Positions 2,565 to 13,023 are shown, numbered from the stretch's first letter. The stretch: 13,023 nt of DNA from an uncultured Fibrobacterota bacterium (GCA_963753345.1 CAVWBU010000053.1:1-13023); one strand, 5' to 3'. The notes: a model not told the origin generated them from the letters alone. Numbers and translations: made by a program.

Positions 2565-2787
2565 GGCAAGACGTCCCCGTGAAGTGGTGTTTTCAGTAAG
2601 ATACGCCGCGGAGGATGCATCCGCCAGAATTTTTCGAAGGTTCCTCGATAACCGCGAAATTGTGGCAATCCTCGCCGTACGCTTCCTACGGCAGTGATAT
2701 TCGCGCGGTTGTCTATGGCCTTAACTCAAAGCCGGAAACGCCGTATTTCCGGATTTGACAAACCGCGAGCAAATGGAGATGGGTTGG

Positions 2788-2820
2788 AAAAGGGCGTCCC
2801 GGCGGGACGCCCTTGTTTTT
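2788..2820. terminator. Intrinsic terminator, probably bidirectional, directly after the helicase stop
   Basis: Perfect 11-bp stem AAGGGCGTCCC (2790-2800) / GGGACGCCCTT (2804-2814) with a 3-nt loop. T runs follow on both strands (TTTT on minus, TTGTTTTT on plus). Confidence 0.8.
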
Positions 2821-4043
2821 CAGGCAAAACGAGGTGTGCGGTAATACTGTCGTTTTCTTAGGAGCACCGGCGCGCTCTGCGCGACCGGTTCCGGTTCAAC
2901 GCGGCCCGGACAGGTAAAACCGGGATACCGCTTCACCTCGAGACGCTTGCCGGTGAGGTGTTCGATTTTTCGCAGATAGCTCTGTTCTTCGCCCGAAACA
3001 AACGTCACCGCGGTTCCCTTTGCCTCGGCGCGGCCTGTCCTGCCGATGCGATGGATGTAATCTTCGGGAAATGCGGGCGTGTCGTAGTTGACCACATGCG
3101 AAATACCGTCCACGTCGATGCCGCGGGCCGCGAGATCGGTGGCCACCAGCACCTTGAATTCCCTGCGCTTGAACCCATCGAGCGCGCGCTTGCGCTGGCT
3201 CTGCGATCGGTTCGAATGGATGGCCGTCGATCTGATGCCGTTCCGCTCCAGTCGCCGCGAAATCTTGTCTGCCCCGTGCTTCGTGCGCGAAAACACAAGC
3301 ATGGGCCCGATGTTCTCGTTTGCAAGGATATGCATAAGAAGATCCATTTTTGTCGGCTGTGGCACCGAATAGAAAAGCTGTTCCACGGTATCAACGGGCG
3401 TGCAGGGGTCTCCGACCTCGACGTAGTGCGGATTGACAAGGATCTCCGAAACGAGCCGCCGGATATCGTGGGACATTGTCGCGGAAAAGAGCAGTGTCTG
3501 CCGCTGGCGCGGGACCTTGGCGATAATGGTCCGCACCGCCTGGATAAACCCCATGTCGTACATTCTGTCCGCTTCGTCAAGAACAAGGATTTCGATATGG
3601 GTGAGGTCGATGGTCCGGCGTTCGCAATGGTCAAGCAGGCGGCCGGGCGTCGCGACAACAATGTCCGCGCCCTGGCGCAGGCCCCTAAACTGGCGCTCGA
3701 TGTCGACGCCGCCGTAGATGGAGACCGGAAAAAGATTCGAGAACCTGCCATAGGTGCGGATTGAATCCTCAATCTGCTGGCAGAGCTCGCGTGTGGGCGT
3801 CAAAATAAGCGCCCTTGGAAAATGGCCCGTGCGTCCTGAACGGTGTGGCTGGACAAGCCGCTGGAGAATGGGAAGCACGAATGCCGCTGTCTTGCCTGTG
3901 CCTGTGGGCGCACATCCGATGATGTCCCTTCCGTCAAGCGCGAGGGGGATCGCTTTCTTCTGGATTTCGGTGGGCGAAGAGTACCCGGCCGCAGAGACGC
4001 TCCGCAGCATTGTATCGGATAGACCGATAGCTGAAAAACTCAT
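2820..4043 (-). CDS. rhlE: DEAD-box ATP-dependent RNA helicase, RhlE-like
   Basis: Q motif (GYSSPTEIQ), APTGTGKT, PTREL, GG, TPGRL, DEAD, SAT, ARGID and HRIGRTGR are all present. Short C-terminus without a DbpA domain. SD-like AAGGAAGG just upstream. Family assignment is firm; the subfamily is by recalled similarity. Confidence 0.93.
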   Translation of the reverse strand: MSFSAIGLSDTMLRSVSAAGYSSPTEIQKKAIPLALDGRDIIGCAPTGTGKTAAFVLPILQRLVQPHRSGRTGHFPRALILTPTRELCQQIEDSIRTYGRFSNLFPVSIYGGVDIERQFRGLRQGADIVVATPGRLLDHCERRTIDLTHIEILVLDEADRMYDMGFIQAVRTIIAKVPRQRQTLLFSATMSHDIRRLVSEILVNPHYVEVGDPCTPVDTVEQLFYSVPQPTKMDLLMHILANENIGPMLVFSRTKHGADKISRRLERNGIRSTAIHSNRSQSQRKRALDGFKRREFKVLVATDLAARGIDVDGISHVVNYDTPAFPEDYIHRIGRTGRAEAKGTAVTFVSGEEQSYLRKIEHLTGKRLEVKRYPGFTCPGRVEPEPVAQSAPVLLRKRQYYRTPRFA

Positions 4044-4174
4044 AACCTTCCTTTGTGGGGAATATGATGTGGTGACACGCTATTTCTGATGGAGACGAGC
4101 AGGAGGTAGAGAAGAGAGGAGCAGTATCTCGAAAAAACCTTCGCCGGAAATCATCGGAGTGCGAGTCTGGTTTA

Positions 4175-4220
4175 CCGTTCCCCTTTGTTAAGAAAGGGGA
4201 ACGGGTTCTGCATTCGCAGA
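4175..4220 (-). promoter_or_regulatory. Two tandem hairpins at the predicted 5' end of the helicase leader
   Basis: 12-bp perfect stem CCGTTCCCCTTT (4175-4186) / AAAGGGGAACGG (4193-4204), and 5-bp stem TCTGC (4207-4211) / GCAGA (4216-4220). No U-tract follows. Confidence 0.55.
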
Positions 4221-4225
4221 CGTTT

Positions 4226-4254
4226 AATATATCATGTGCCGTTGCGTTTGTATA
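4226..4254 (-). promoter_or_regulatory. Putative sigma70-type promoter of the helicase
   Basis: Minus strand reads TATACA-17 nt-TATATT, with TG one base before the -10 (TGaTATATT, extended -10). Confidence 0.5.
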
Positions 4255-4295
4255 GGAATTAATAAAAAGATTTGTCGGGCACCCGCATATGTTAA

Positions 4296-5110
4296 TTACT
4301 GGTTCCCGATTTTCTCCAACAGAATGCCATGATACTGCATTGATGAAATCCTTTTCCCGTTCACGTTGTAATAAATTCCGTTTCTTCTCATCTGTTTACC
4401 GTCAAGGATGATCACCGCATGCCGGATTGACGCGGTGGGTCGCGCCGCGGGTTTGCTGACAAAAGGCTTGGCCGCGACGGAGATGTTCTGGTTGTTGAAG
4501 GAAATTAAATTTACTTGAGTACGATAGTCGGAATTACTTCCTTCCTCTGAATAAAGAGAGTATAGGCCGATATTCTGGTAGTAGTAATCCCAAAAAGCAC
4601 CACCAGCACCTGCCTGGCCATAGCAAAAGATGGAGTCATTATCCAGCAGGACTTTTTTTAGGCTGTCCTGAGTGATCACATGAGTGTTGTAGAACGGGAA
4701 AATAGGGCAGCGGTAAGGCATATGCTCCACTATGGAATCACCCGATGCAACCGCGGTATCGGTGTAATTCCAGGTAGCGGTCGTGTCTGTGTGTATTCCA
4801 AAGCCGCCAGCATCGTAAACTTTTCTTCCTCGCTCGGAAACGCCGAGGAGAATTGCCGTATCATTTCCTTGCAGGGATTTTGAGGACACTGTTATTGATA
4901 TTGTCAGGGAATCCATTATGGTGGAAAGATATGAGATCCAGTGGAGTAATAATAATATCCGTGGAGTAATAATAATAATTGTAAACCCATTTCGCTCCCA
5001 CCGTCTGTCGGCGCGAAATCGCCGATCATTGCGCAAAACGCGGTGGAGGTAAGCAGCATGATTCCGAAGGTTACGGCCACCATCGTGTTTGATTTGAATG
5101 TCGATGTCAT
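4296..5110 (-). pseudogene. Secreted hypothetical protein with a basic C-terminal tail, frameshifted near 4920-5005 (pseudogene or sequence error)
   Basis: AAGGAG lies 6 nt before ATG 5110. The signal peptide (MTSTFKSNTMVAVTFGIMLLTSTAFCA) is in a frame that stops at 4916, while the body (DSLTISITV...YNVNGKRISSMQYHGILLEK) is in the 4296..5036 frame. Visibly AT-richer than its neighbours. Confidence 0.65.
4941..4977. repeat. 17-bp direct repeat with 20-bp period, containing (AAT)n
   Basis: GTGGAGTAATAATAATA occurs at 4941-4957 and 4961-4977. Confidence 0.95.
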
Positions 5111-5220
5111 AGGCGGCTCCTTTGATTTCGCCATTACACTATTAATATAGAATACGGGGAATGTGAAAGAAGTGTCGCGCAAAGAAAGTGGTTTCTGGCA
5201 GAAAACGCTTACCCTATCAG

Positions 5221-5814
5221 TTACTCCAGCGCCTTCCCCCACATCCCCCCGAACACAAACTCCTTCTGCGGTCTTCTGACCCTTGGCGCGGCTTCCCTCT
5301 CGGCAAGAACGGGAGGCAGCAGCGACGCGTCGCCGGCATATCCCATCGCGATTGCCGTGAGCGGAACAACACCGTCAGGAATGGAGAGCTCCGCAATTGC
5401 TTTCTGCGCATCGAATCCCGCCATCTGATGGACCGAAACCCCTTCGGCGGCAGCCTGAAACGTAAGGTGGGCGGCAGACTGGCCGCAGTCGTAGGCATGC
5501 CATTTGTTGGGCTTTGTGCCGCCCGTAAAGCTAGTGCGGCCGCACACGATCATCAGCACGGCCGCCTGCGAGGCCCACGTCTGGTTGTTGGGAGTGAGAG
5601 TGGAACAAATCCTGCTGAAATCCGGACCCTGGTTTCTGATTCCCGCGATGTAAAACCATTCCTGGTCGTTGTTGCACGACGGCGCCCAGCGGGCCGCTTC
5701 AAAAATCCTCTTGAGAGCGACAGGGTCTATCTGCTTGTCAAGAAACGCGCGCGGACTGTAGCGGTTTGCAAGAAGGGGATGAATGGCGAAATCGGTTTTT
5801 GCGGGATTTTGCAT
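5221..5814 (-). CDS. Nitroreductase family flavoprotein (197 aa)
   Basis: IHPLLANRYSPRAF, FEAARWAPSCNNDQEW, YDCGQSAAHL and HQMAGFD motifs. ATG 5814 has AGGGGAAG upstream. The longer start at 5988 overlaps the upstream gene and is rejected. Confidence 0.9.
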   Translation of the reverse strand: MQNPAKTDFAIHPLLANRYSPRAFLDKQIDPVALKRIFEAARWAPSCNNDQEWFYIAGIRNQGPDFSRICSTLTPNNQTWASQAAVLMIVCGRTSFTGGTKPNKWHAYDCGQSAAHLTFQAAAEGVSVHQMAGFDAQKAIAELSIPDGVVPLTAIAMGYAGDASLLPPVLAEREAAPRVRRPQKEFVFGGMWGKALE

Positions 5815-5869
5815 GATCGGCTTCCCCTGCGGGCGTTGCGGCGGATTGTTTCGAAAACCTATAAGCCAA

Positions 5870-6742
5870 TCATGCCACGATCTTCTTAATGTACTCGGGC
5901 AGCAGAAACGCGCCGCGGTGAATGTCGGGATTGTAATACTGGCACTTTTTGGCGACCGACGCAAACCGCTTCTCGTTGAATTTGTCAAGGTCCGGCCCGT
6001 CCTTGGCGCAGATCACGAAGCTGCACATGCCTTCGGGAAACGACGGCATGGTGCAGGTGTACAGCCGGAATGCCTTGAACAGCGAGGAAATGGTCGCCAC
6101 GGTGGACCGCAGGTACTCGCCGCGGATGGTGGGAGAATCGGTCTGGAACACGGCGATGCCGCCCTTGTCAAGACGTTCGAAGACGAGCCGGTAGAAATCG
6201 GCGGTCTCGAGCGACTGGACCGGCCCGCCCGGATCGTACGAGTCAACGAGTATCACGTCGAACGTCTCCTTGGATTTCTTGAGGTACGAACACCCTTCGG
6301 CGAACTCCGCGCGGCTCCGTTTGTCCGAAAACGATTTGGCTAGGGCCGGGAAATGGGCGGCGACGGCCTCGCGCACCATTTTGTCGATCTCGACCACGAG
6401 CGCGGTCTCGACGTCCTTGTACTTGAGCACCTCCCTGAGTACGCCGCCGTCGCCGCCGCCGATGATGCACACGCGGCGCGGGTCTGCGTGCATGTTCATG
6501 GCGGGGTGGGTGATCGATTCGTGGTAGATGTACTCGTCCCGCTCGGTGAGCACGATGTTGTCCCCGAGCACGAGCACCTTGCCGAACGCGTAGGTGTGAA
6601 ATATCTCGATCTTCTGGAACGGGCTGGCGCCGTAGTACAATGCATGCTTGGCGCGCAGCGTGAATCCCGAAAGCCCGTTCACCAGGTTTTCGAGCCACAG
6701 GGAAGCGTTGCTGCCGGTTTCGTAACGGGGAGTGTTTTCCAT
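5870..6742 (-). CDS. speE: Polyamine aminopropyltransferase (spermidine synthase family), paralog 2
   Basis: SPFQ, TERDEYIYHE, IIGGGDGGVLRE, VEID and ILVDSYDP motifs. SD AAGGA overlaps the upstream stop codon. Substrate specificity is not established. Confidence 0.92.
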   Translation of the reverse strand: MENTPRYETGSNASLWLENLVNGLSGFTLRAKHALYYGASPFQKIEIFHTYAFGKVLVLGDNIVLTERDEYIYHESITHPAMNMHADPRRVCIIGGGDGGVLREVLKYKDVETALVVEIDKMVREAVAAHFPALAKSFSDKRSRAEFAEGCSYLKKSKETFDVILVDSYDPGGPVQSLETADFYRLVFERLDKGGIAVFQTDSPTIRGEYLRSTVATISSLFKAFRLYTCTMPSFPEGMCSFVICAKDGPDLDKFNEKRFASVAKKCQYYNPDIHRGAFLLPEYIKKIVA

Positions 6743-6753
6743 GGTATTATCCT

Positions 6754-7854
6754 TTAGTCAATAACAACGATCTTCGCCTTTGGAAATCCGTTGAACGTGG
6801 TGGCGCTCGCCGTGGTGTATGCGCCCATGGAATCGAACAGGATGACGTCGCCGATCTCGAGCTGCGGCAGCGCGATGTTTTCGTACAGCACGTCGAACGA
6901 GTCGCAGGTTGGGCCCGCGATCACCGAATTGAACGTCTCGCCCGAGCGCGGCACGAACAGCGGATAGTCGGCATGGTCGAACACCTTGCCCGAAAACGAG
7001 CCGTACACCCCTTCGTCAAGATAATACCACCACACGCCGCCGCGCAAGGACTTGCCCATCACCCTCGCGGCGAGCACCATGCACGGCCCCGACAGCACCC
7101 TGCCCGGCTCGGCGATGATGCGGTAATTGGTGAAATAGCGTTCCAGGTATTCGTTGATGGGCTGGCAGAATCGCTGGATGGGCAGCACGGGATTCAGGTA
7201 ATTGATGGGAAAGCCGCCGCCGATGTCGATGACGCTCAGCACAATGCCGCTTAGCGCGGCCTTGCGGCAGATGTCGCGGCAGAAATCGAGCGCCTCAATG
7301 TACTTGAGCGGGTTTTCGTTCTGCGAGCCGGCATGAAAGCTGATGCCCGCAATCGAAAGTCCCATGTCGTGCGCCTTCTGAATAAGCGAAAACGTCTGGG
7401 TGGGCGCGCACCCGAATTTGTGTGACAGATTTACCATGCACGACGGGTTCTGGACGCTCATTCTGACAAGGATCTTCGCACGCTCTTTGTAGGGCAGGAA
7501 TTTTGACAGCTCGAATTCGTTGTCCACCACAAACAGGGACACGCCGAAATCGAGCGCATAGCTGATGTCCGAATCCCGCTTGATGGGATGCGTGTGCATG
7601 CACTTGTCGGCCGTGACCCCGCAGTTCCTTACGATGTCGATTTCGCCGTTAGTGCAGATGTCGAAGGAACTGCCCTCCTGCCTGAGAATGTCGATGATCT
7701 CGGTCTGGGCGTTGGACTTGACAGCGTAAAACAGCTCCACGCCCGGCAGGGACAGGGCGAGGGCGCGAAAACTCTCGCGGAGCCTGCCTTGCGAAAGGAA
7801 AAGGGCGGGCGTGCCGTGCGCCGCAACAAGGCCGGAAAGTCTTGCAAAATCCAT
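6754..7854 (-). CDS. PLP-dependent fold-type III (alanine-racemase fold) ornithine/lysine decarboxylase
   Basis: FYAVKSN (PLP lysine), KFG, FHAGSQ, DIGGGFP, EPGR, GPTCDSFD and GAYT motifs. The 366-aa size and the Asp in VFDH fit the ODC or Lys/Orn decarboxylase type rather than LysA or SpeA. Confidence 0.92.
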   Translation of the reverse strand: MDFARLSGLVAAHGTPALFLSQGRLRESFRALALSLPGVELFYAVKSNAQTEIIDILRQEGSSFDICTNGEIDIVRNCGVTADKCMHTHPIKRDSDISYALDFGVSLFVVDNEFELSKFLPYKERAKILVRMSVQNPSCMVNLSHKFGCAPTQTFSLIQKAHDMGLSIAGISFHAGSQNENPLKYIEALDFCRDICRKAALSGIVLSVIDIGGGFPINYLNPVLPIQRFCQPINEYLERYFTNYRIIAEPGRVLSGPCMVLAARVMGKSLRGGVWWYYLDEGVYGSFSGKVFDHADYPLFVPRSGETFNSVIAGPTCDSFDVLYENIALPQLEIGDVILFDSMGAYTTASATTFNGFPKAKIVVID

Positions 7855-7907
7855 AGGGCGGTCTGCCGCCGGAGGCCTTTCTGAAAAAGGGGACGTAAAA
7901 AGGATAT

Positions 7908-7915
7908 CAAATATA
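7908..7915 (-). promoter_or_regulatory. Possible internal promoter element upstream of the decarboxylase
   Basis: TATATTTG in the 108-bp intergenic gap. The same TATATT core lies upstream of two other genes. No good -35 seen. Confidence 0.3.
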
Positions 7916-7962
7916 CGTTACGTGGGAGCAGCCGTACATGTATTCATTGCCAGCGCAACCGT

Positions 7963-8904
7963 TCACTCGTGGGCGATTTCGTCGGGAATGTCCGGGCGGC
8001 GGTCGGTGAGGATGCGTGCGCGTTTGTCAAGTAGTTGTTCCAGGACCGGCCACGATGCCTGCGCGGCCTCGTGGATGCGCCCGGTGTAGTACCGGAGGCC
8101 CTTGATGCCGTAGCGGGAGAGTTTTTTGTCAACCTGGATGCGGGACACCGCCGTCATGTCCGAACGGTCCGACGAAACGGTCACCGACCACAGCGTCGCG
8201 TACATGTGGATGTAGCAGTACAGCGGGCACACGTGCGGAAACACGGAGCGGAGCGTTCGCTGGATGCAGGCGAACGTGCGCGGCCTGGTCACGGGCGATT
8301 CGGTGTGCATTACGAATACGCCGCGCCGGTCCACAAACGACCGCTTTACGGAGAGGAAAAAATCGCGCGTGTACAGAAACCGCGCAGGGCCGAAGGGGTC
8401 GGTCATGTCCATGATCACCATGTCGAAACTCTTCGGGTGCTTTTCCACGAAATCGCGGCCGTCGTAAATGTGGATGCGGACGCGGGGATCGTCGAAGGCG
8501 CCCTGGTGCACCGAGGGCAGGTACTTTCGGGAAAACTCGATAACGCCTTCGTCGAGCTCCGCGAGGTCAAGCGATTTTACGCACGGATACTTGAGCACCT
8601 CGCGGATGATGCCGCCGTCGCCCGCGCCGATCACGAGGACGCGCTCGGGGCGCGGGTGCGTGCACATGGCGGGATGCACCATGGGTTCGTGGTAGTAGCA
8701 TTCGCCCTTCTGGGCCGCCTGGGTGATGCCGTCGAGGATGAGCACGCGGCCGAATTCGCTTGTGTCAACAAGCTCGAGGGTCTGGTACTTGGTCGCGCCG
8801 AACCGCAAGCGTCGCTTGATGGCGTAGAAGAACCCCATGTTGTTGTTGAGCCACTCGGTGTGCTGGGTGGCGCGGCGGGAACGGTGGAAAAAGCCGGTGT
8901 TCAT
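7963..8904 (-). CDS. speE: Polyamine aminopropyltransferase (spermidine synthase family), paralog 1
   Basis: TKYQ, ILDGITQ, YYHE, VIGAGDGGIIRE, AELD, DG and IMDMTDP motifs. ATG lies 1 nt after the speD stop (TGAcATG). Substrate specificity is not established. Confidence 0.92.
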   Translation of the reverse strand: MNTGFFHRSRRATQHTEWLNNNMGFFYAIKRRLRFGATKYQTLELVDTSEFGRVLILDGITQAAQKGECYYHEPMVHPAMCTHPRPERVLVIGAGDGGIIREVLKYPCVKSLDLAELDEGVIEFSRKYLPSVHQGAFDDPRVRIHIYDGRDFVEKHPKSFDMVIMDMTDPFGPARFLYTRDFFLSVKRSFVDRRGVFVMHTESPVTRPRTFACIQRTLRSVFPHVCPLYCYIHMYATLWSVTVSSDRSDMTAVSRIQVDKKLSRYGIKGLRYYTGRIHEAAQASWPVLEQLLDKRARILTDRRPDIPDEIAHE

Positions 8905-8905
8905 G

Positions 8906-9688
8906 TCACACGTCGTACGGGTAGATGTTCTTGCACTGGTAAATCTCGAGGATCTCGTTGCGGAGAAGGGTGGATATCTTCGACCGGGCCGAAGGGGTGA
9001 GCGACTGGTTTTCCGGGCCGAACAGGTAGTTGTCGAGCTTGAACTTGCCCAGCATCATCTTGGTGTGGAAGATGTTGTCCGAGACGATGTTGATGTCGTA
9101 GGCGGTGTAGATGTCGAGGATTTCGTCGGAGATGTAGTCCTGGATCGAGGTGATGTCGTGGTCCATGTAGACCTTGCGGCCGTGGACGTCACGCGTGAAT
9201 CCCCGCACCTTGTAGTCCATGAGCACGATGTCGGAGTCGAAGCTGTTGATGAGGAAATCGAGGGCGTTGAGCGGCGAGATCGTGCCGCAGGTGGTGACGT
9301 TGATGTCCACGCGGAACGTGCTGATGCCGGTGACGGGATTGGTCTCGGGGTACGTGTGCGCCGAAATATGGCTTTTGTCAAGATGCGCGACGGTTCCCTG
9401 CGGCACCGACAGGTGCCCTTCGTTGATGAGCACGGTCACCGACGCGCCGCGCGGCTCGTAATCCTGGCTCGACATGTTGATGATGTTGGCTTCGATGATC
9501 CTGGTCACTTCCTCAAGAATGCTGCGGATCTTCTTGGAATTGTACACCTCGTCGATGTAGTCGAGGTAGTCGTACTGGGAGGCCTTGGAGCGGGCGTAGC
9601 ATATATCGTAGATGTTGAAGCTGAGCGACTTGGTGAGGCTGTTGAAGCCCTGCAGCTTGATCTTCCTGCCGCGGCATCGGTTGATCAT
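8906..9688 (-). CDS. speD: S-adenosylmethionine decarboxylase proenzyme, E. coli-type (class 1A)
   Basis: KLQGFNSLTKSLSFNIYDICY N-terminus, pyruvoyl cleavage motif HLDK/SHISAHTYPE, TCGTISPL and DYKVRGFTRD. 260 aa, with AGGGGG upstream. Confidence 0.96.
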   Translation of the reverse strand: MINRCRGRKIKLQGFNSLTKSLSFNIYDICYARSKASQYDYLDYIDEVYNSKKIRSILEEVTRIIEANIINMSSQDYEPRGASVTVLINEGHLSVPQGTVAHLDKSHISAHTYPETNPVTGISTFRVDINVTTCGTISPLNALDFLINSFDSDIVLMDYKVRGFTRDVHGRKVYMDHDITSIQDYISDEILDIYTAYDINIVSDNIFHTKMMLGKFKLDNYLFGPENQSLTPSARSKISTLLRNEILEIYQCKNIYPYDV

Positions 9689-9715
9689 CGAGTCAACCCC
9701 CTTTACAAGCAGAAA

Positions 9716-9800
9716 TCACCACGGTGGCACAGAGGTCACAGAGAGGAAAGGAAGAATTACTATTGGTTTTATCTCGGTGTTCTCTGCGCCTCTGTGGTGA
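9716..9800. repeat. Imperfect long inverted repeat (REP/MITE-like) built from 9-bp CACAGAGNN-type units
   Basis: Left arm TCACCACGGTGGCACAGAGGTCACAGAGA (9716-9744) matches the reverse complement of 9772-9800 (TCACCACAGAGGCGCAGAGAACACCGAGA) at 23/29 positions. The spacer is 27 nt and AT-rich. Confidence 0.85.
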
Positions 9801-9808
9801 GGCTTTTC

Positions 9809-10705
9809 TTACAGTTCGTTGATGTACAGCGGCTTGTACCCGCGGTACTTGTGGGAAAAATAATTGATGAGGATAACTTCGGTCCTTTTTTTCGGGGCGA
9901 TGTTGACGATCATCCGGTCGGAGAACAGCCTGCTCATGTGCAGCCCCCTGCCCGAAACGTCAAGCGCACCTTCGCCCGACAACTGGCGCTCGATCTTGTA
10001 AAGTACGGTTTCGCGTGTGAGCCTGCCGGCATCGTCGACCACGGATATGCCGTATTTTTCCGCATCGCAGGCGCATTCGAGATGAACGAATTCGCCGGGA
10101 GCAAGCGTAACCTCGGAATATGCCTCGTATTTCTGCGTGCCGTCGGGAAAGGCGGGGGCATGGTACACCGCGTTGGTGACGATTTCGTCGAGGGTGAGGC
10201 GCATGTCGCCCGCGGCGCCGAGCTTCTCGGTGAACAGCGCCACCGCCGCCTCACGGACATCCGTCGCCTCGCGCGACGAGCGGATTTCGAAGCCGCCGAG
10301 GCGCGTGTGCGAGGGAAGCATGTAGCGCGAAAGGCCAAAGATGTCGCCGGTGAGAAGGCCGTCTATCACCGCGTCAAGCTCGTCGAAGTTGAACGGCAGC
10401 GTCTTGGGGATGATGGTGGAGACGCCGCTCGTCCGCGCAATGCGCACGTAGTCGTCGATGTTACAGGCCGTGATGAGGACCGTGCGGGCCGCCGGGTGGA
10501 GCCGCTTGATTTCCGCAAGGAGCTGCGGTCCCTTCATGCCCGGCATGTTGATGTCCGAAATCACCATGTCAAATGATTGCTTTTCGCACAACGCAAGCGC
10601 CTCGCCGGCGTTCGCGGCCGTTGCCGTGTCGTACCTGCCGTCGAAATAGTCGAGCAGCATGCTGCAGATCGATGGGTCGTCGTCGACAAGGAGAATACTG
10701 TGCAT
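9809..10705 (-). CDS. Receiver domain fused to an RsbW/SpoIIAB-like HATPase_c domain
   Basis: REC: ILLVDDD, ISDINMPGMKG (phospho-Asp), LITA, IPK. C-terminal part: LDEIVTNAVYH (N box), VVDDAG, SGRGLHM. No DNA-binding domain or H-box seen. An alternative start lies at 10726. Confidence 0.85.
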   Translation of the reverse strand: MHSILLVDDDPSICSMLLDYFDGRYDTATAANAGEALALCEKQSFDMVISDINMPGMKGPQLLAEIKRLHPAARTVLITACNIDDYVRIARTSGVSTIIPKTLPFNFDELDAVIDGLLTGDIFGLSRYMLPSHTRLGGFEIRSSREATDVREAAVALFTEKLGAAGDMRLTLDEIVTNAVYHAPAFPDGTQKYEAYSEVTLAPGEFVHLECACDAEKYGISVVDDAGRLTRETVLYKIERQLSGEGALDVSGRGLHMSRLFSDRMIVNIAPKKRTEVILINYFSHKYRGYKPLYINEL

Positions 10706-10735
10706 CAGATCGGGTTCCCCGTGCATAAAAGCAGG

Positions 10736-13023
10736 TCAGTGAACGGTCCCGGTCGTAAATTTCCAGAGCTGGCTTGACGTTTGCGACTTCCAGTCGCGCG
10801 CGACCACGCGCCAGTAGTAGGTCTGGTTGGAGACGAGGTCCTGCACGACCGCTCCCGAAACCGCGGTGGTCGCAAGCAGGGAAAGGGCGGCCGGGTCGGT
10901 GCCGAAGTAGACGTCGTAGGTGAGCGAATCGCCGTCCGGATCATGCCCTGAAAATGCGAGTGCCAGACTTGACGAAGCGACAAGCCCTGTGTCGAGCGGG
11001 GAGACGACTGCGGGCGTGTCGGGCGGCGATCCGAAATACAGTCGCACCCGGATCGAGTCGGAGCTGGCTTCGTCGTTCACGGTTGCCACAATGGTATCGT
11101 ATCCGGTGTACATCGCCGGGTCCACCGTGTAAACGAAGGTGTCCACCACCGCCGAATCGAAGCTGTTAAAGCTGTGCGTCGCGGACTCGTACAAGGTGAA
11201 TTGATGGCGGGCCACCAGAGGATTGTTCGGATCGTACACTTTGAATACCAGGGTGAACGGCAGCTTTGCGTCGGCAAGACGCAGCGCACCGTTCGCAAGC
11301 GTGTCGGCCGAATAGGAAACCGAGAGTGAACACGGCCTGTTCGGCGGCACAACCAGAATGCCGGGATACAGGGTGTCGGAAGTCCAGAGCTGATCGCTCA
11401 CGATCGAAATGATCTGCCAATACCCGGTGTCCGACGCGGTCGGCGCCCACGAGATCATGCTGCCGGTGCTGGTCGCCGCAAGACCATTCTTGCCGATGAT
11501 TCGCGTCCAATAGTTAAAAGGAGGGAGACCGGTTCCCGCGGCAACCTGCAGAACCATGTGCAGCGAATCTCTGCCGGCAACCAGGTATCGCGGGAAGTCT
11601 TGGGCCTGGGTTTCAAAGGCAACGGGCGACGTCAGAGGCTGCCCCGGCTTTAGCACGTTGAGAAAGTAGTAATCGTATACAAATTGATATCCGTCAAAAA
11701 TGCTTATATAAATGGTATGCAAACCCGTATCGGCCAGAGACGGCAACCATTGTATCGCTCCATGCCGGTCCACCGTCGTTTCCAAGGGACCGGTGACCTT
11801 ATCAAAGGAAAGGCTGTCGTTGTCAGGATCAAACGCGACGATCGTGTCCCTGTAGAGAGTGCCGGCATAGATGCATGACGTGCGCGGGTATCGTTGGATG
11901 ATCGGCAGATTGTTTCGAAAGATTACCGCCGCCGCCCGACCCACATTGCCTTTCTTGTCCGTGGCCTTCACGGCCACAAGATTCCCTATTGTGGTGTGTT
12001 GAAGGGGTATTGTGTCGTAGTACCAGGGCCCGCCGCCGGAAAGCATCTTCCCGTTGACTGATAGAGTGTCTATGGGCGACACGTCGTCGACGGCTTCCAC
12101 GGCGAGCGCGGCGCTGGCCGCGCTGGTGTACAGGCCCTGCGCGGGCGAGCCGTTAGCTTCTATGTCCAGAATCCGCGGCGAAGAAGTGTCCGGAGAGGTC
12201 GAGCTGTAGAACAGCATCACATCCTTTTCGTCAAGCGTTACTCCGCTCTCGTTGTCAACCGCAACGATTCTAACCGGGTTTGGGCCCAGGTTGAGGGAGA
12301 CGGACCATTGCCACAGCGTGCTGCTGTCCGCAATGCGCCAAGCGTGGGGGTTTTCGCTTCCGTCAACATACAGAAGGACCGAACAATTGAGCGCGCTCGC
12401 CGAGTTGTTGATTATGGCACCCGAAATGACATAGGGCGAGACGGCCACTATCGATGTATCCGAGCGCGGCGACACCACCGAAATGGATACTTTTGGAGAC
12501 GGCGGGATGGCGGATGAAAATACAAGCCAGTAGGTCTTGCGCGCTGCCGTGCCGTTCACGAACCGATCGAGCGCAAAAATGTTGAACGCGAGGGTGGAGG
12601 AAGCGGAGTACTGGTAAGTCTTGCTGAAGAGTTTGTAGTAAACCGAGCCGCTGTGGCCATCGAACGGCCCGCCATTGACCGATGCCGAGTCTACGCCCAA
12701 GCCGAGGTTATCGGTAATGCGGACCCTGAGATTGAAGACGGAATCGCCGGTGAAGATCGTATCGTTGCGGATGAGGCCGTTGTTCACGCAAAGTATTGCC
12801 GGCGGCACCGTGTCCCGAACAGAGAAGAAGAAACTGTCGACCGGCGACAAGAATTTCCCGTCCCACACCCACAGGCTTCCGGTTCCGAACATGGTTGCCA
12901 CCGGGAAAATCACCTTCATGGAGCATACCGGTGAAACAAAGTTGATGCCGGGCCCAAAACTCCAATAATAGGCGACGTTCTCGATTCGACACGGGGCGGG
13001 TGCGCAGCAGTATCGAGTCGTGT
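10736..13023 (-). CDS. Large beta-rich surface/secreted protein with Ig-, cadherin- and Fn3-like modules, 5' truncated by the window edge
   Basis: The frame has no stop between 12919 and the window end. Cadherin-like/putative Ig motifs (AFDPDNDSLSF...IQWLPSLADTG; ISWAPTASDTG) and a terminal Fn3-like module (DPDGDSLTYDVYFGT...TYYWRVVARD). Ser/Thr/Val rich. Confidence 0.8.
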   Translation of the reverse strand, partial: TTRYCCAPAPCRIENVAYYWSFGPGINFVSPVCSMKVIFPVATMFGTGSLWVWDGKFLSPVDSFFFSVRDTVPPAILCVNNGLIRNDTIFTGDSVFNLRVRITDNLGLGVDSASVNGGPFDGHSGSVYYKLFSKTYQYSASSTLAFNIFALDRFVNGTAARKTYWLVFSSAIPPSPKVSISVVSPRSDTSIVAVSPYVISGAIINNSASALNCSVLLYVDGSENPHAWRIADSSTLWQWSVSLNLGPNPVRIVAVDNESGVTLDEKDVMLFYSSTSPDTSSPRILDIEANGSPAQGLYTSAASAALAVEAVDDVSPIDTLSVNGKMLSGGGPWYYDTIPLQHTTIGNLVAVKATDKKGNVGRAAAVIFRNNLPIIQRYPRTSCIYAGTLYRDTIVAFDPDNDSLSFDKVTGPLETTVDRHGAIQWLPSLADTGLHTIYISIFDGYQFVYDYYFLNVLKPGQPLTSPVAFETQAQDFPRYLVAGRDSLHMVLQVAAGTGLPPFNYWTRIIGKNGLAATSTGSMISWAPTASDTGYWQIISIVSDQLWTSDTLYPGILVVPPNRPCSLSVSYSADTLANGALRLADAKLPFTLVFKVYDPNNPLVARHQFTLYESATHSFNSFDSAVVDTFVYTVDPAMYTGYDTIVATVNDEASSDSIRVRLYFGSPPDTPAVVSPLDTGLVASSSLALAFSGHDPDGDSLTYDVYFGTDPAALSLLATTAVSGAVVQDLVSNQTYYWRVVARDWKSQTSSQLWKFTTGTVH

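Follow-up and report, generated by a model that had tools for sequence, protein, structure and literature searches.

A conserved operon of Chitinivibrionales-type Fibrobacterota pairs two aminopropyltransferases and may direct the synthesis of spermidine and a tetraamine

A polyamine gene cluster of an uncultured Fibrobacterota bacterium encodes two aminopropyltransferases, which raises the question of what each of them makes. The cluster lies in a 13,023-nucleotide stretch of DNA (GCA_963753345.1, CAVWBU010000053.1:1-13023) that was analysed whole and is referred to here as the window. The relevant features are listed below in the order in which they would be transcribed.

9809-10726, minus strand: REC plus HATPase_c_2 protein, RsbW/SpoIIAB-type kinase-like (305 aa; Pfam)
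8906-9688, minus strand: speD (260-aa ORF; Pfam AdoMet_dc)
7963-8904, minus strand: aminopropyltransferase APT1 (313-aa ORF; Pfam Spermine_synth and Spermine_synt_N, E = 1.7e-49)
7855-7962, minus strand: spacer between APT1 and the decarboxylase gene (108 nt)
6754-7854, minus strand: PLP decarboxylase of the ornithine or lysine-ornithine type (366 aa; Pfam Orn_Arg_deC_N and Orn_DAP_Arg_deC)
5870-6742, minus strand: aminopropyltransferase APT2 (290-aa ORF; Pfam Spermine_synth and Spermine_synt_N, E = 4.4e-48)

An earlier, sequence-only reading of this DNA had described two coupled decarboxylase-transferase modules on one strand that form a self-contained pathway. This description held, both in the minus-strand ORFs with their Pfam and NCBIfam assignments and in the junctions, which were read directly. 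The TGA of speD is followed by 1 base and then the ATG of APT1, and the TAA of the decarboxylase gene is followed by 11 nt, including AGGA, and then the ATG of APT2. The intergenic gaps in the order speD-APT1-decarboxylase-APT2 are 1, 108, and 11 nt; by naive ORF calls, the APT1-decarboxylase spacer is about 8 to 40 nt in most more distant relatives. No Rfam family reached its gathering score in the whole window, the 108-nt spacer included, and no riboswitch was detected there. Promoter and terminator scans gave nothing beyond shuffle expectation, with no minus-strand match in the spacer, and no notable repeats were found in the window. The ORFs at 4296-5036 and 5188-5889 had no match in Pfam (E up to 1) or PADLOC, and for a 727-aa protein PADLOC gave nothing, with Pfam yielding only matches below threshold (best, Big_9, E = 0.012).

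The arrangement was then compared across 80 loci from other genomes, 55 of them Fibrobacterota. The four-gene order was intact in 45 of the 80 loci and present with a split decarboxylase gene in 2 more, giving 47 of the 55 Fibrobacterota loci. This recurrence demonstrates that the arrangement is not due to chance, and it settles the matter of conserved gene order that the sequence-only reading had referred to relatives. The same reading would have been refuted if relatives usually carried just one of the two enzymes. Instead, an APT2-type match was present in 54 of the 57 APT1-bearing genomes of the Fibrobacterota phylum sample. APT1 occurred without APT2 in three Fibrobacterota genomes, and no APT2-type gene was seen without APT1 in the genomes surveyed. 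Among public metagenome runs, near-identical DNA turned up in samples of peat, freshwater sediment, and soil; no RNA runs were listed among the public runs with such DNA.

SpeD scored 355.9 bits against TIGR03331, the model of E. coli-type AdoMetDC (cut-off, 255.8), which places it in class 1a. It shares 50% identity with SpeD of E. coli K-12 and keeps the LDKSH stretch, at whose Lys-Ser it presumably cleaves itself. By these similarities SpeD is a proenzyme of the E. coli type, predicted to supply decarboxylated SAM. speD is the sole AdoMetDC gene found in the genome, a duplicate contig aside; the second copy of the cluster was attributed to strain redundancy in the assembly, and genuine duplication, whether tandem or dispersed, was rejected. 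The product of the REC-HATPase_c_2 gene matched Pfam Response_reg (E = 5.3e-20) and HATPase_c_2 (E = 3.1e-07). In 47 of the 80 loci, every one of them from Fibrobacterota, such a gene directly precedes speD in the same orientation. This conserved neighbor is a possible candidate regulator. Its family comprises several paralogs in each genome and extends to genomes without APT1, and the role of a dedicated polyamine regulator was not established given these paralogs and the 49 to 55%-identical members in APT1-less Fibrobacterota genomes.

The decarboxylase scored 168.4 bits against PF02784 and 72.6 bits against PF00278. Its best solved relative was 2plj (363.6 bits, E = 1.1e-107, residues 9 to 365 aligned), the bifunctional lysine/ornithine decarboxylase (L/ODC) of Vibrio vulnificus (PMC7857480), followed by a Selenomonas enzyme. 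Scores in the PDB were 363.6 and 251.3 bits for L/ODCs, about 204 for eukaryotic ornithine decarboxylases (ODCs), and no more than 93 for DAP decarboxylases, while no NCBIfam equivalog exceeded its cut-off (lysA, 173.1 versus 297.9). With both Pfam domains, and with characterised ODCs or L/ODCs closer to it than DAP, arginine, or carboxyspermidine decarboxylases, the protein belongs with the alanine-racemase-fold ODCs or L/ODCs. At 366 aa it has about 40 N-terminal residues fewer than 2plj, a 419-residue chain. Its predicted product is putrescine, possibly with cadaverine as well.

Both transferases are members of the SpeE family. APT1 scored 168.3 bits against PF01564, 35.5 against PF17284, and 304.1 against NF002010 (cut-off, 260); the corresponding scores of APT2 were 163.7, 41.8, and 278.4. 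The Asp of GxGDG, which the sequence-only reading had noted in both enzymes, was confirmed: the dcAdoMet motif is GAGDGG in APT1, or G(A/G)GDGG across its family, and GGGDGG in APT2, with Asp in all 70 APT1 and all 58 APT2 sequences. In the APT1 family D96, E116, D166, and D169 were present in 70 of 70 sequences and G98 in 66; in the APT2 family D98 and D167 were present in 58 of 58, and D170 in 50, with Glu in the remaining 8. Two gate-loop Asp residues (DxxDP) deprotonate and hold the amine, roles assigned in work on AtSPDS (PMC6514230). Since both enzymes keep the GxGDG Asp and the gate-loop Asp, both appear catalytically whole.

Despite this shared chemistry, APT1 and APT2 are only 35% identical and fell into separate clades (SH-like support, 100 and 98) in a FastTree of 139 rows. 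E. coli SpeE, the sole characterised anchor of this tree, joined nearer APT2, and 10 distant cluster representatives that were looked up included no characterised accession; PDB profile scores and Foldseek ranks were therefore used in addition. APT2 alone exceeded the cut-off of the spermidine synthase equivalog TIGR00417 speE (264.2 bits versus 249.55), APT1 falling under it at 235.8. The APT2 family profile scored 244.5 bits against 1inl (Thermotoga maritima), 227 against 2o05 (human), 185 against 1uir (Thermus), 169 against 7xif (Pyrobaculum), and 165 against 6bq2 (the thermospermine synthase MtTSPS), thus ranking spermidine synthases first and the thermospermine synthase last. These data place APT2, as judged by sequence, in the canonical spermidine-synthase clade.

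The APT1 family profile gave a different order, with 6bq2 at rank 2 (212 bits), followed by 7xif (206), 1uir (204), 1inl (185.5), and 2o05 (175). When an APT1 model (pLDDT 82) was searched with Foldseek, the top ranks were 7xif, 1uir/3anx, 1iy9, and 6bq2, in a ranking whose E-values span only about 5 orders of magnitude. The closest solved folds were the Thermus thermophilus triamine/agmatine aminopropyltransferase (1uir, 3anx) and Pyrobaculum calidifontis SpeE (7xif), with E-values of 4.9e-30 to 1.8e-28, TM scores of 0.77 to 0.85, and 33 to 36% identity. Family profile and predicted fold therefore both suggest that the APT1 clade is closest to the broad-specificity enzymes of Thermus and Pyrobaculum and to plant thermospermine synthase. 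Like the Thermus and Pyrobaculum enzymes, APT1 has an LYT stretch following the gate loop, and their C-terminal tail aligns to its conserved TD. However, those enzymes have GGGEGA and a motif-3 Asp, whereas APT1 has G(A/G)GDGG and Glu. They also belong to agmatine-using thermophiles, whereas the metagenome runs with DNA nearly identical to that analysed here are peat, sediment, and soil samples, and searches of this genome detected neither an arginine decarboxylase nor a ureohydrolase. In the APT1 clade, a body resembling the Thermus enzyme and thermospermine synthase thus carries a dcAdoMet motif of the spermine-synthase kind, and members are habitually linked to an AdoMetDC, either as neighboring genes or as a fusion. 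An APT1-type enzyme was the only short aminopropyltransferase in five of five Spirochaete genomes, none of which had a carboxy(nor)spermidine decarboxylase (CASDC) above cut-off, and APT1 can therefore probably make spermidine unaided.

The motifs of the two enzymes do not settle their products. GGGEGA, the usual thermospermine-synthase motif with Glu for the GxGDG Asp, was absent from both families. Validated thermospermine synthases of Fimbriimonas and Thermodesulfobacterium also lack GGGEGA as known exceptions (Li et al. 2024, J Biol Chem 300:107281, PMC11107197), so that its absence lowers the chance of a thermospermine synthase without excluding one. The pattern of Asp plus motif-3 Glu seen in APT1 is shared by only two of the thermospermine synthases tested in that study. 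Both APT1 and APT2 (G100 in 56 of 58 sequences; motif-3 E118 in 49 of 58) match the spermine-synthase motif described there, hhhhGGGD(G/C)G with Glu at motif 3. That motif does not set apart spermidine synthases (PMC11107197), and the same Asp and Glu are found in the spermidine synthases 1inl and 2b2c. The pattern alone is therefore insufficient and decides nothing.

More can be drawn from known enzyme pairs. Li et al. described 13 bacterial aminopropyltransferase pairs, 4 of them from mesophiles picked solely for having two such enzymes, and in each pair one member makes spermine or thermospermine (PMC11107197). Those pairs, for example in Thermodesulfovibrio yellowstonii and Desulfarculus baarsii, likewise comprise two SpeE-family genes from two deep clades; there, spermidine is the product of one enzyme, and spermine or thermospermine that of its partner. 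Fibrobacterota lie outside the lineages sampled in that work. Unlike those pairs, the two genes here share one operon with SpeD and a diamine-forming decarboxylase; the terms "operon," "gene cluster," and "adjacent" do not occur in the main text of PMC11107197. Pseudomonas aeruginosa speD2-speE2 (PA4774, a thermospermine synthase) has an AdoMetDC gene immediately upstream, as APT1 does, in a genome that also has a separate canonical spermidine synthase, as here (PMC11107197). However, the Pseudomonas AdoMetDC is of the small class 1b and the modules are unlinked, while all genes here are contiguous with a class 1a SpeD. The E. coli speE-speD operon has a single transferase, 35% identical to APT2 and 32% to APT1, with speE before speD and no decarboxylase among the 6 features of the 3.5-kb speED stretch.

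The analysis establishes what the genes are, that their catalytic residues are intact, that their order is conserved, and that the two transferases have separate clade affinities; all substrates and products are inferred, as follows. The decarboxylase would convert ornithine to putrescine and perhaps some lysine to cadaverine, and SpeD would provide decarboxylated SAM. APT2 would act as a canonical spermidine synthase, and APT1, itself probably competent for spermidine, would most likely attach one more aminopropyl group, yielding a tetraamine, either thermospermine or spermine. Because 13 of 13 tested pairs contain a tetraamine maker, spermidine plus a tetraamine is the likeliest reading. The odds lean somewhat toward some tetraamine being made; the assignment of that step to APT1 is tentative, at a little under even chances. 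For the whole, a conserved polyamine operon of Chitinivibrionales-type Fibrobacterota in which APT2 makes spermidine and APT1 a tetraamine, we put the chances at about even. The part of the sequence-only reading that had the second enzyme yield a tetraamine is thus plausible, while its "long-chain or unusual" polyamines gained no specific support.

It is unlikely that the two enzymes are isoenzymes that both make spermidine only and are kept for dosage, kinetics, or regulation, with no tetraamine made. Sequence motifs cannot tell spermidine from tetraamine synthases (PMC11107197), both enzymes exceed the general aminopropyltransferase cut-off of NF002010, and the spermidine synthase 1iy9 is the best PDB match of both families. 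However, so divergent a pair has been kept side by side across lineages whose orthologs are only 50 to 60% identical, and every tested bacterial pair has a tetraamine-making member. In addition, this genus already keeps a further triamine route independent of dcAdoMet, a carboxy(nor)spermidine dehydrogenase (CASDH)/CASDC pair encoded elsewhere in the genome.

Rather unlikely as well is a reversal of roles, in which the SpeD-coupled APT1 is the general spermidine synthase and the decarboxylase-coupled APT2, though it arose inside the spermidine-synthase clade, is a spermine synthase. Such an origin has precedent, since spermine synthases are interspersed among spermidine synthases, in a clade without thermospermine synthases, and D. 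baarsii has two aminopropyltransferases in different clades, one of them a spermine synthase (PMC11107197). The APT2 family also has invariants of its own, SFPEGxCSF with F235 and C240 and LET with E179, at sites where the spermidine synthases 1iy9, 1inl, and 2b2c have (T)YPSG and LF. APT1 is the only short aminopropyltransferase in the five Spirochaete and three Fibrobacterota genomes and the APT2 type occurred alone in none of the genomes surveyed, and APT2 as the accessory enzyme therefore fits equally well. The GGGDGG motif and motif-3 Glu of APT2 would suit a spermine synthase but are common to spermidine synthases, and both the equivalog score and the profile ranking of APT2 favor a plain spermidine synthase.

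That one enzyme uses another acceptor, turning cadaverine into aminopropylcadaverine, or norspermidine or 1,3-diaminopropane into norspermine or norspermidine, is improbable. The affinity of the decarboxylase to the V. vulnificus L/ODC and then the Selenomonas enzyme would fit cadaverine, thermospermine synthases also convert norspermidine to norspermine (PMC11107197), and the CASDC of this genome scored 423.9 against the carboxynorspermidine decarboxylase model (cut-off, 409.05). However, of 81 genomes surveyed in the order, where the transferase pair is general, only 17 were found to carry CASDC, so the pair cannot depend on CASDC. It would be similarly surprising if the APT1 clade were an uncharacterised specificity class, the operon, through APT1 together with APT2 and a bifunctional L/ODC, made an unexpected polyamine in mesophilic anaerobic Fibrobacterota, and the REC-HATPase_c_2 protein tied its synthesis to a two-component signal; if true, candidate products would be thermospermine, an aminopropylcadaverine-derived tetraamine, and norspermine. 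An N1-aminopropylagmatine route was rejected because no arginase-fold ureohydrolase, above-cut-off SpeA-type arginine decarboxylase, AAT-fold decarboxylase, or pyruvoyl arginine decarboxylase was found in this genome, although at 94% completeness the absence of an agmatine route is not proven.

Tetraamines were long considered characteristic of eukaryotes and thermophiles. To our knowledge, spermine and thermospermine synthases in mesophilic bacteria were shown only in 2024. Since bacterial aminopropyltransferase pairs were described in that year, the idea of a pair is no longer new as a kind, and the Fibrobacterota operon would be an addition to known biology rather than a surprise. It is a likely further case of tetraamine synthesis, one that extends across an entire order of uncultured Fibrobacterota. 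Because the genes for all steps, those of the two transferases among them, form a single unit that could be cloned and assayed together, the operon is a convenient system for studying how work is divided between two deep transferase clades.

The window makes up the whole of contig C53 (13,023 bases) of a 4.5-Mb metagenome-assembled genome (completeness, 94.26%; contamination, 4.79%), and its nearest named records are Chitinivibrionales and Fibrobacterota MAGs. The sequence-only reading had described two coupled decarboxylase-transferase pairs on one strand, and every detail of that description was right: the successive gaps between the four genes listed here are 1, 108, and 11 nt.

Polyamine genes of the window (nucleotides, strand, product)
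9688-8906, minus strand: speD, 260 aa; TIGR03331 (E. coli-type AdoMetDC) at 355.9 bits, cut-off 255.8
8904-7963, minus strand: APT1, 313 aa; Spermine_synth and tetramerisation domains; above the NF002010 cut-off
7854-6754, minus strand: decarboxylase, 366 aa; alanine-racemase fold
6742-5870, minus strand: APT2, 290 aa; Spermine_synth and tetramerisation domains; above the NF002010 cut-off

SpeD shares 50% identity with its E. coli K-12 counterpart, LDKSH stretch included; Li et al. 2024 name this type of AdoMetDC class 1a (PMC11107197). The best solved relative of the decarboxylase was 2plj (363.6 bits), which passages of PMC7857480 describe as the bifunctional lysine/ornithine decarboxylase of Vibrio vulnificus. 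APT2 scored above the speE equivalog cut-off of 249.55 bits (264.2 bits), whereas APT1 scored below it (235.8 bits).

An alignment of APT1 relatives was searched against one genome per species, the best 80 of 201 confirmed stretches were taken with 6 kb of flank each, and relatives of the four proteins were located within these loci by tblastn.

Gene orders in the best 80 of 201 confirmed stretches
speD-APT1-decarboxylase-APT2: 45 loci
speD-APT1-decarboxylase-APT2, decarboxylase in two pieces: 2 loci
APT1-decarboxylase-APT2: 12 loci
speD-APT1: 16 loci
speD-APT1-decarboxylase: 2 loci
APT1 alone: 2 loci
APT1-decarboxylase: 1 locus

Conservation of the four-gene order, proposed earlier as a check, was borne out among these 80 loci, grouped by record title: the full order was present in 47 of 55 Fibrobacterota loci, one was cut upstream, two were without APT2, and five carried speD-APT1 only (one of these sequences ends 32 nt past APT1 and another about 1.3 kb past it). 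The 12 Spirochaete loci had speD-APT1 only, with one cut upstream, and 12 Planctomycetota loci plus one unclassified locus had APT1-decarboxylase-APT2 without this speD, with two cut downstream. Among 151 genomes sampled evenly across the phylum, 57 had an APT1-type match (identity of at least 49%), all within the window's taxonomic order. A second match at 31 to 39% identity, usually on the same contig and about 2 kb away, was found in 54 of these 57; the 3 genomes without a partner belong to one genus. No APT2-type match without APT1 was found among the 151 genomes (one genome, G015, has a single 37% match, left unclassified), and no match of any kind was found in one family, represented by 55 genomes. 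Relatives therefore normally carry both enzymes, not just one, which the sequence-only reading had named as a refutation. Split decarboxylases or stop codons in the APT2-type frame were seen at loci L037 and L052 and in genomes G096 and G128, possibly reflecting decay or assembly errors.

A gene for a protein with receiver and RsbW/SpoIIAB-type HATPase_c_2 domains (REC-HATPase_c_2; 9809-10726, minus strand) lies immediately upstream of speD in 47 of the 80 loci. Of the 49 Fibrobacterota loci whose sequence extends more than about 1 kb upstream of speD, 47 have it; it is absent from this position in all Spirochaete and Planctomycete loci among the 80. The family has several paralogs in each genome. 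On the other side, a 233-aa open reading frame (5188-5889, plus strand) is convergent with APT2, the two genes sharing the final 20 nt of APT2; the frame had no family match and is kept only in the close relatives L010, L011, and L013 (76%, 45%, and 30% identity). A 246-aa frame (4296-5036, minus strand) lies in a low-GC stretch (0.45 versus about 0.58) and had no counterpart in Pfam, NCBIfam, or PADLOC, nor by tblastn in the 80 related loci. A second copy of the region (window 2704-11379) stands at the end of contig G000:C48 (L009 6139-16636), and the 246-aa frame falls within a segment (4283-5222) that differs between the two, on either side of which the two copies match along 6.2 kb (96.7% identity) and 1.6 kb (98.5% identity). 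With a contamination of 4.79%, this looks like two co-binned strains rather than a true duplication.

The two TRANSFERASES (APT1, APT2) are different kinds, judging from their sequences. They share 35% identity and are 32% (APT1) and 35% (APT2) identical to E. coli SpeE. A FastTree phylogeny of 139 rows was built from the window's APT1 and APT2, E. coli SpeE, 79 of 80 APT1 open reading frames, and 57 of 59 APT2 open reading frames; one APT1 frame above 470 aa and two truncated APT2 frames were excluded, and over-long naive frames were cut to their last 330 residues. SH-like support was 100 for the APT1 clade and 98 for the APT2 clade, into which the Planctomycetota copies fall; E. coli SpeE joined closer to APT2. 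Twelve Spirochaete APT1 genes (L036, L051, L054, L065-L067, L070, L071, L078, L081, L083, and L087) were nested among those of Fibrobacterota, which suggests horizontal transfer of speD-APT1 as a two-gene module. When all PDB sequences were scored with the family profiles, APT1 and APT2 contrasted clearly, with 1iy9, a Bacillus subtilis enzyme, as the top match for both.

Scores of family profiles against PDB sequences (bits; APT1 family, APT2 family)
6bq2, M. truncatula thermospermine synthase: 212, 165 (last of 25)
7xif, P. calidifontis SpeE: 206, 169
1uir, T. thermophilus enzyme: 204, 185
1inl, T. maritima spermidine synthase: 185.5, 244.5
2o05, human spermidine synthase: 175, 227
6o64, A. 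thaliana SPDS2: 163, 233.5
1iy9, spermidine synthase: 221, 254

With an AlphaFold model of APT1 (mean pLDDT, 82.1), Foldseek ranked 7xif, 1uir/3anx, 1iy9, and 6bq2 above the T. maritima, human, and E. coli enzymes, within E-values covering only 4.9e-30 to about 4e-25.

Residues were counted in the APT1 family (n = 70; the window and 69 loci, frames of 295 to 345 aa) and the APT2 family (n = 58). The Asp of GxGDG, reported earlier for both enzymes, is present in each.

Catalytic positions (APT1 family; APT2 family)
GxGDG Asp: D96, 70/70; D98, 58/58
Position +2: G98, 66/70; G100, 56/58
Motif 3: E116, 70/70; E118, 49/58, Asp in 9
Gate-loop Asp 1: D166, 70/70; D167, 58/58
Gate-loop Asp 2: D169, 70/70; D170, 50/58

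The LYT stretch is without variation in the APT1 family. The APT2 family has invariant SFPEGxCSF and LET where 1iy9, 1inl, and 2b2c have (T)YPSG and LF; in the former, a Phe occupies the site of one of the two Tyr residues that hold putrescine in AtSPDS, as described in passages of PMC6514230. Passages of Li et al. assign hhhhGGGD(G/C)G with a motif-3 Glu to spermine synthases and hhhhGGGEGA to thermospermine synthases, with two exceptions named, and state that the spermine-synthase motif fails to set spermidine synthases apart (PMC11107197). Both APT1 and APT2 have the former pattern, which mildly argues against a typical thermospermine synthase and settles nothing further, since two spermidine synthases in the alignments, that of T. 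maritima and 2b2c, have it too.

In the window's own genome (94.26% complete), no arginase-fold ureohydrolase, AAT-fold decarboxylase, or pyruvoyl arginine decarboxylase was found, nor a SpeA-type arginine decarboxylase above cut-off, nor any AdoMetDC beyond the cluster and its duplicate copy. Just two further alanine-racemase-fold decarboxylases were found, one a lysA-like frame of 414 aa and the other a carboxynorspermidine decarboxylase (423.9 bits, cut-off 409.05; G000:C41:135762-138224 = L090 4762-7224, minus strand). The latter adjoins a carboxynorspermidine-synthase-like gene (482.6 bits, under the model cut-off of 800), so the genus is predicted to have a second triamine route, independent of decarboxylated SAM. 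By coordinates, two relatives have a carboxynorspermidine decarboxylase within a few kb of the APT operon on one contig (G056:C16:19351-24575 and G074:C57:6442-15982), in G056 between the REC-HATPase_c_2 gene and APT1. Four more Spermine_synth matches of 59 to 72 bits (G000:C41:175967-176428, C41:267453-267836, C14:12710-13204, and C16:23079-23528) sit in frames of 783 to 1057 aa, which probably encode membrane-fused SpeE-like proteins. In 5 of 5 Spirochaete genomes carrying speD-APT1, APT1 was the sole short transferase and no carboxyspermidine decarboxylase exceeded its cut-off; we therefore infer that APT1-type enzymes can produce spermidine unaided.

HMMER searches of 1.84 billion cluster representatives gave only about ten clusters of at least 45% identity to APT1, above a broad field at 31 to 43%. 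Among the best 150 representatives, 24 were 390 to 456 aa long with the transferase domain beginning past residue 100. Seven of these were scanned: in five, an AdoMet_dc domain at the N terminus exceeded the Pfam cut-off, in one such a domain was weak, and in one the domain was unrelated; AdoMetDC-transferase fusions thus occur among more distant APT1 relatives. Passages of PMC11107197 and PMC12803844 describe characterized fusions of this architecture from other lineages, which are either spermine synthases or synthases of mixed spermine/thermospermine type. Two other distant relatives, P0158 (1108 aa; pyruvate:ferredoxin-oxidoreductase domains, a partial AdoMet_dc, then Spermine_synth) and P0140 (588 aa; tandem Spermine_synth domains), could be true fusions or gene-call artefacts.

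In the pathway that we propose, the decarboxylase would act on ornithine, and perhaps lysine, and SpeD would provide decarboxylated SAM; both transferases would probably aminopropylate putrescine, and one probably also spermidine. By analogy the precedent is strong: passages of Li et al. report spermine or thermospermine synthesis by one member of every bacterial pair tested, 13 of 13, including four mesophiles picked solely for having two homologs (PMC11107197). We lean toward some tetraamine being produced, with APT1 as a tentative candidate for the enzyme. That APT1 and APT2 make spermidine only is unlikely; the motif shared with spermidine synthases would fit this, and the 13 pairs would not. 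Quite unlikely is extension of spermidine by APT2, which shares the motif pattern and scores above the speE equivalog cut-off. Use of cadaverine or norspermidine as acceptor is improbable, although a decarboxylase acting on lysine would be compatible with the former.

Among described systems, the bacterial transferase pairs of Li et al. 2024 come nearest (PMC11107197); what is new here is the lineage, together with a single conserved operon that unites both transferases with SpeD and the decarboxylase. In that paper Fibrobacteres are named solely in a reference title (PMC11107197). Full-text literature searches found no publication for Fibrobacterota with spermidine synthase, and for 'Chitinispirill' with spermidine only a metagenome study, unrelated by its title and abstract. 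Hosoya et al. 2006, cited by Li et al., reportedly analyzed Fibrobacteres polyamines and may bear on the content of the phylum. This is a genuine, well-conserved cluster whose polyamine meaning is plausible. The carboxy(nor)spermidine dehydrogenase/decarboxylase (CASDH/CASDC) route is patchy within the order, where just 17 of the 81 genomes were found to have it, and thus the operon is the sole recognizable spermidine route in most relatives.
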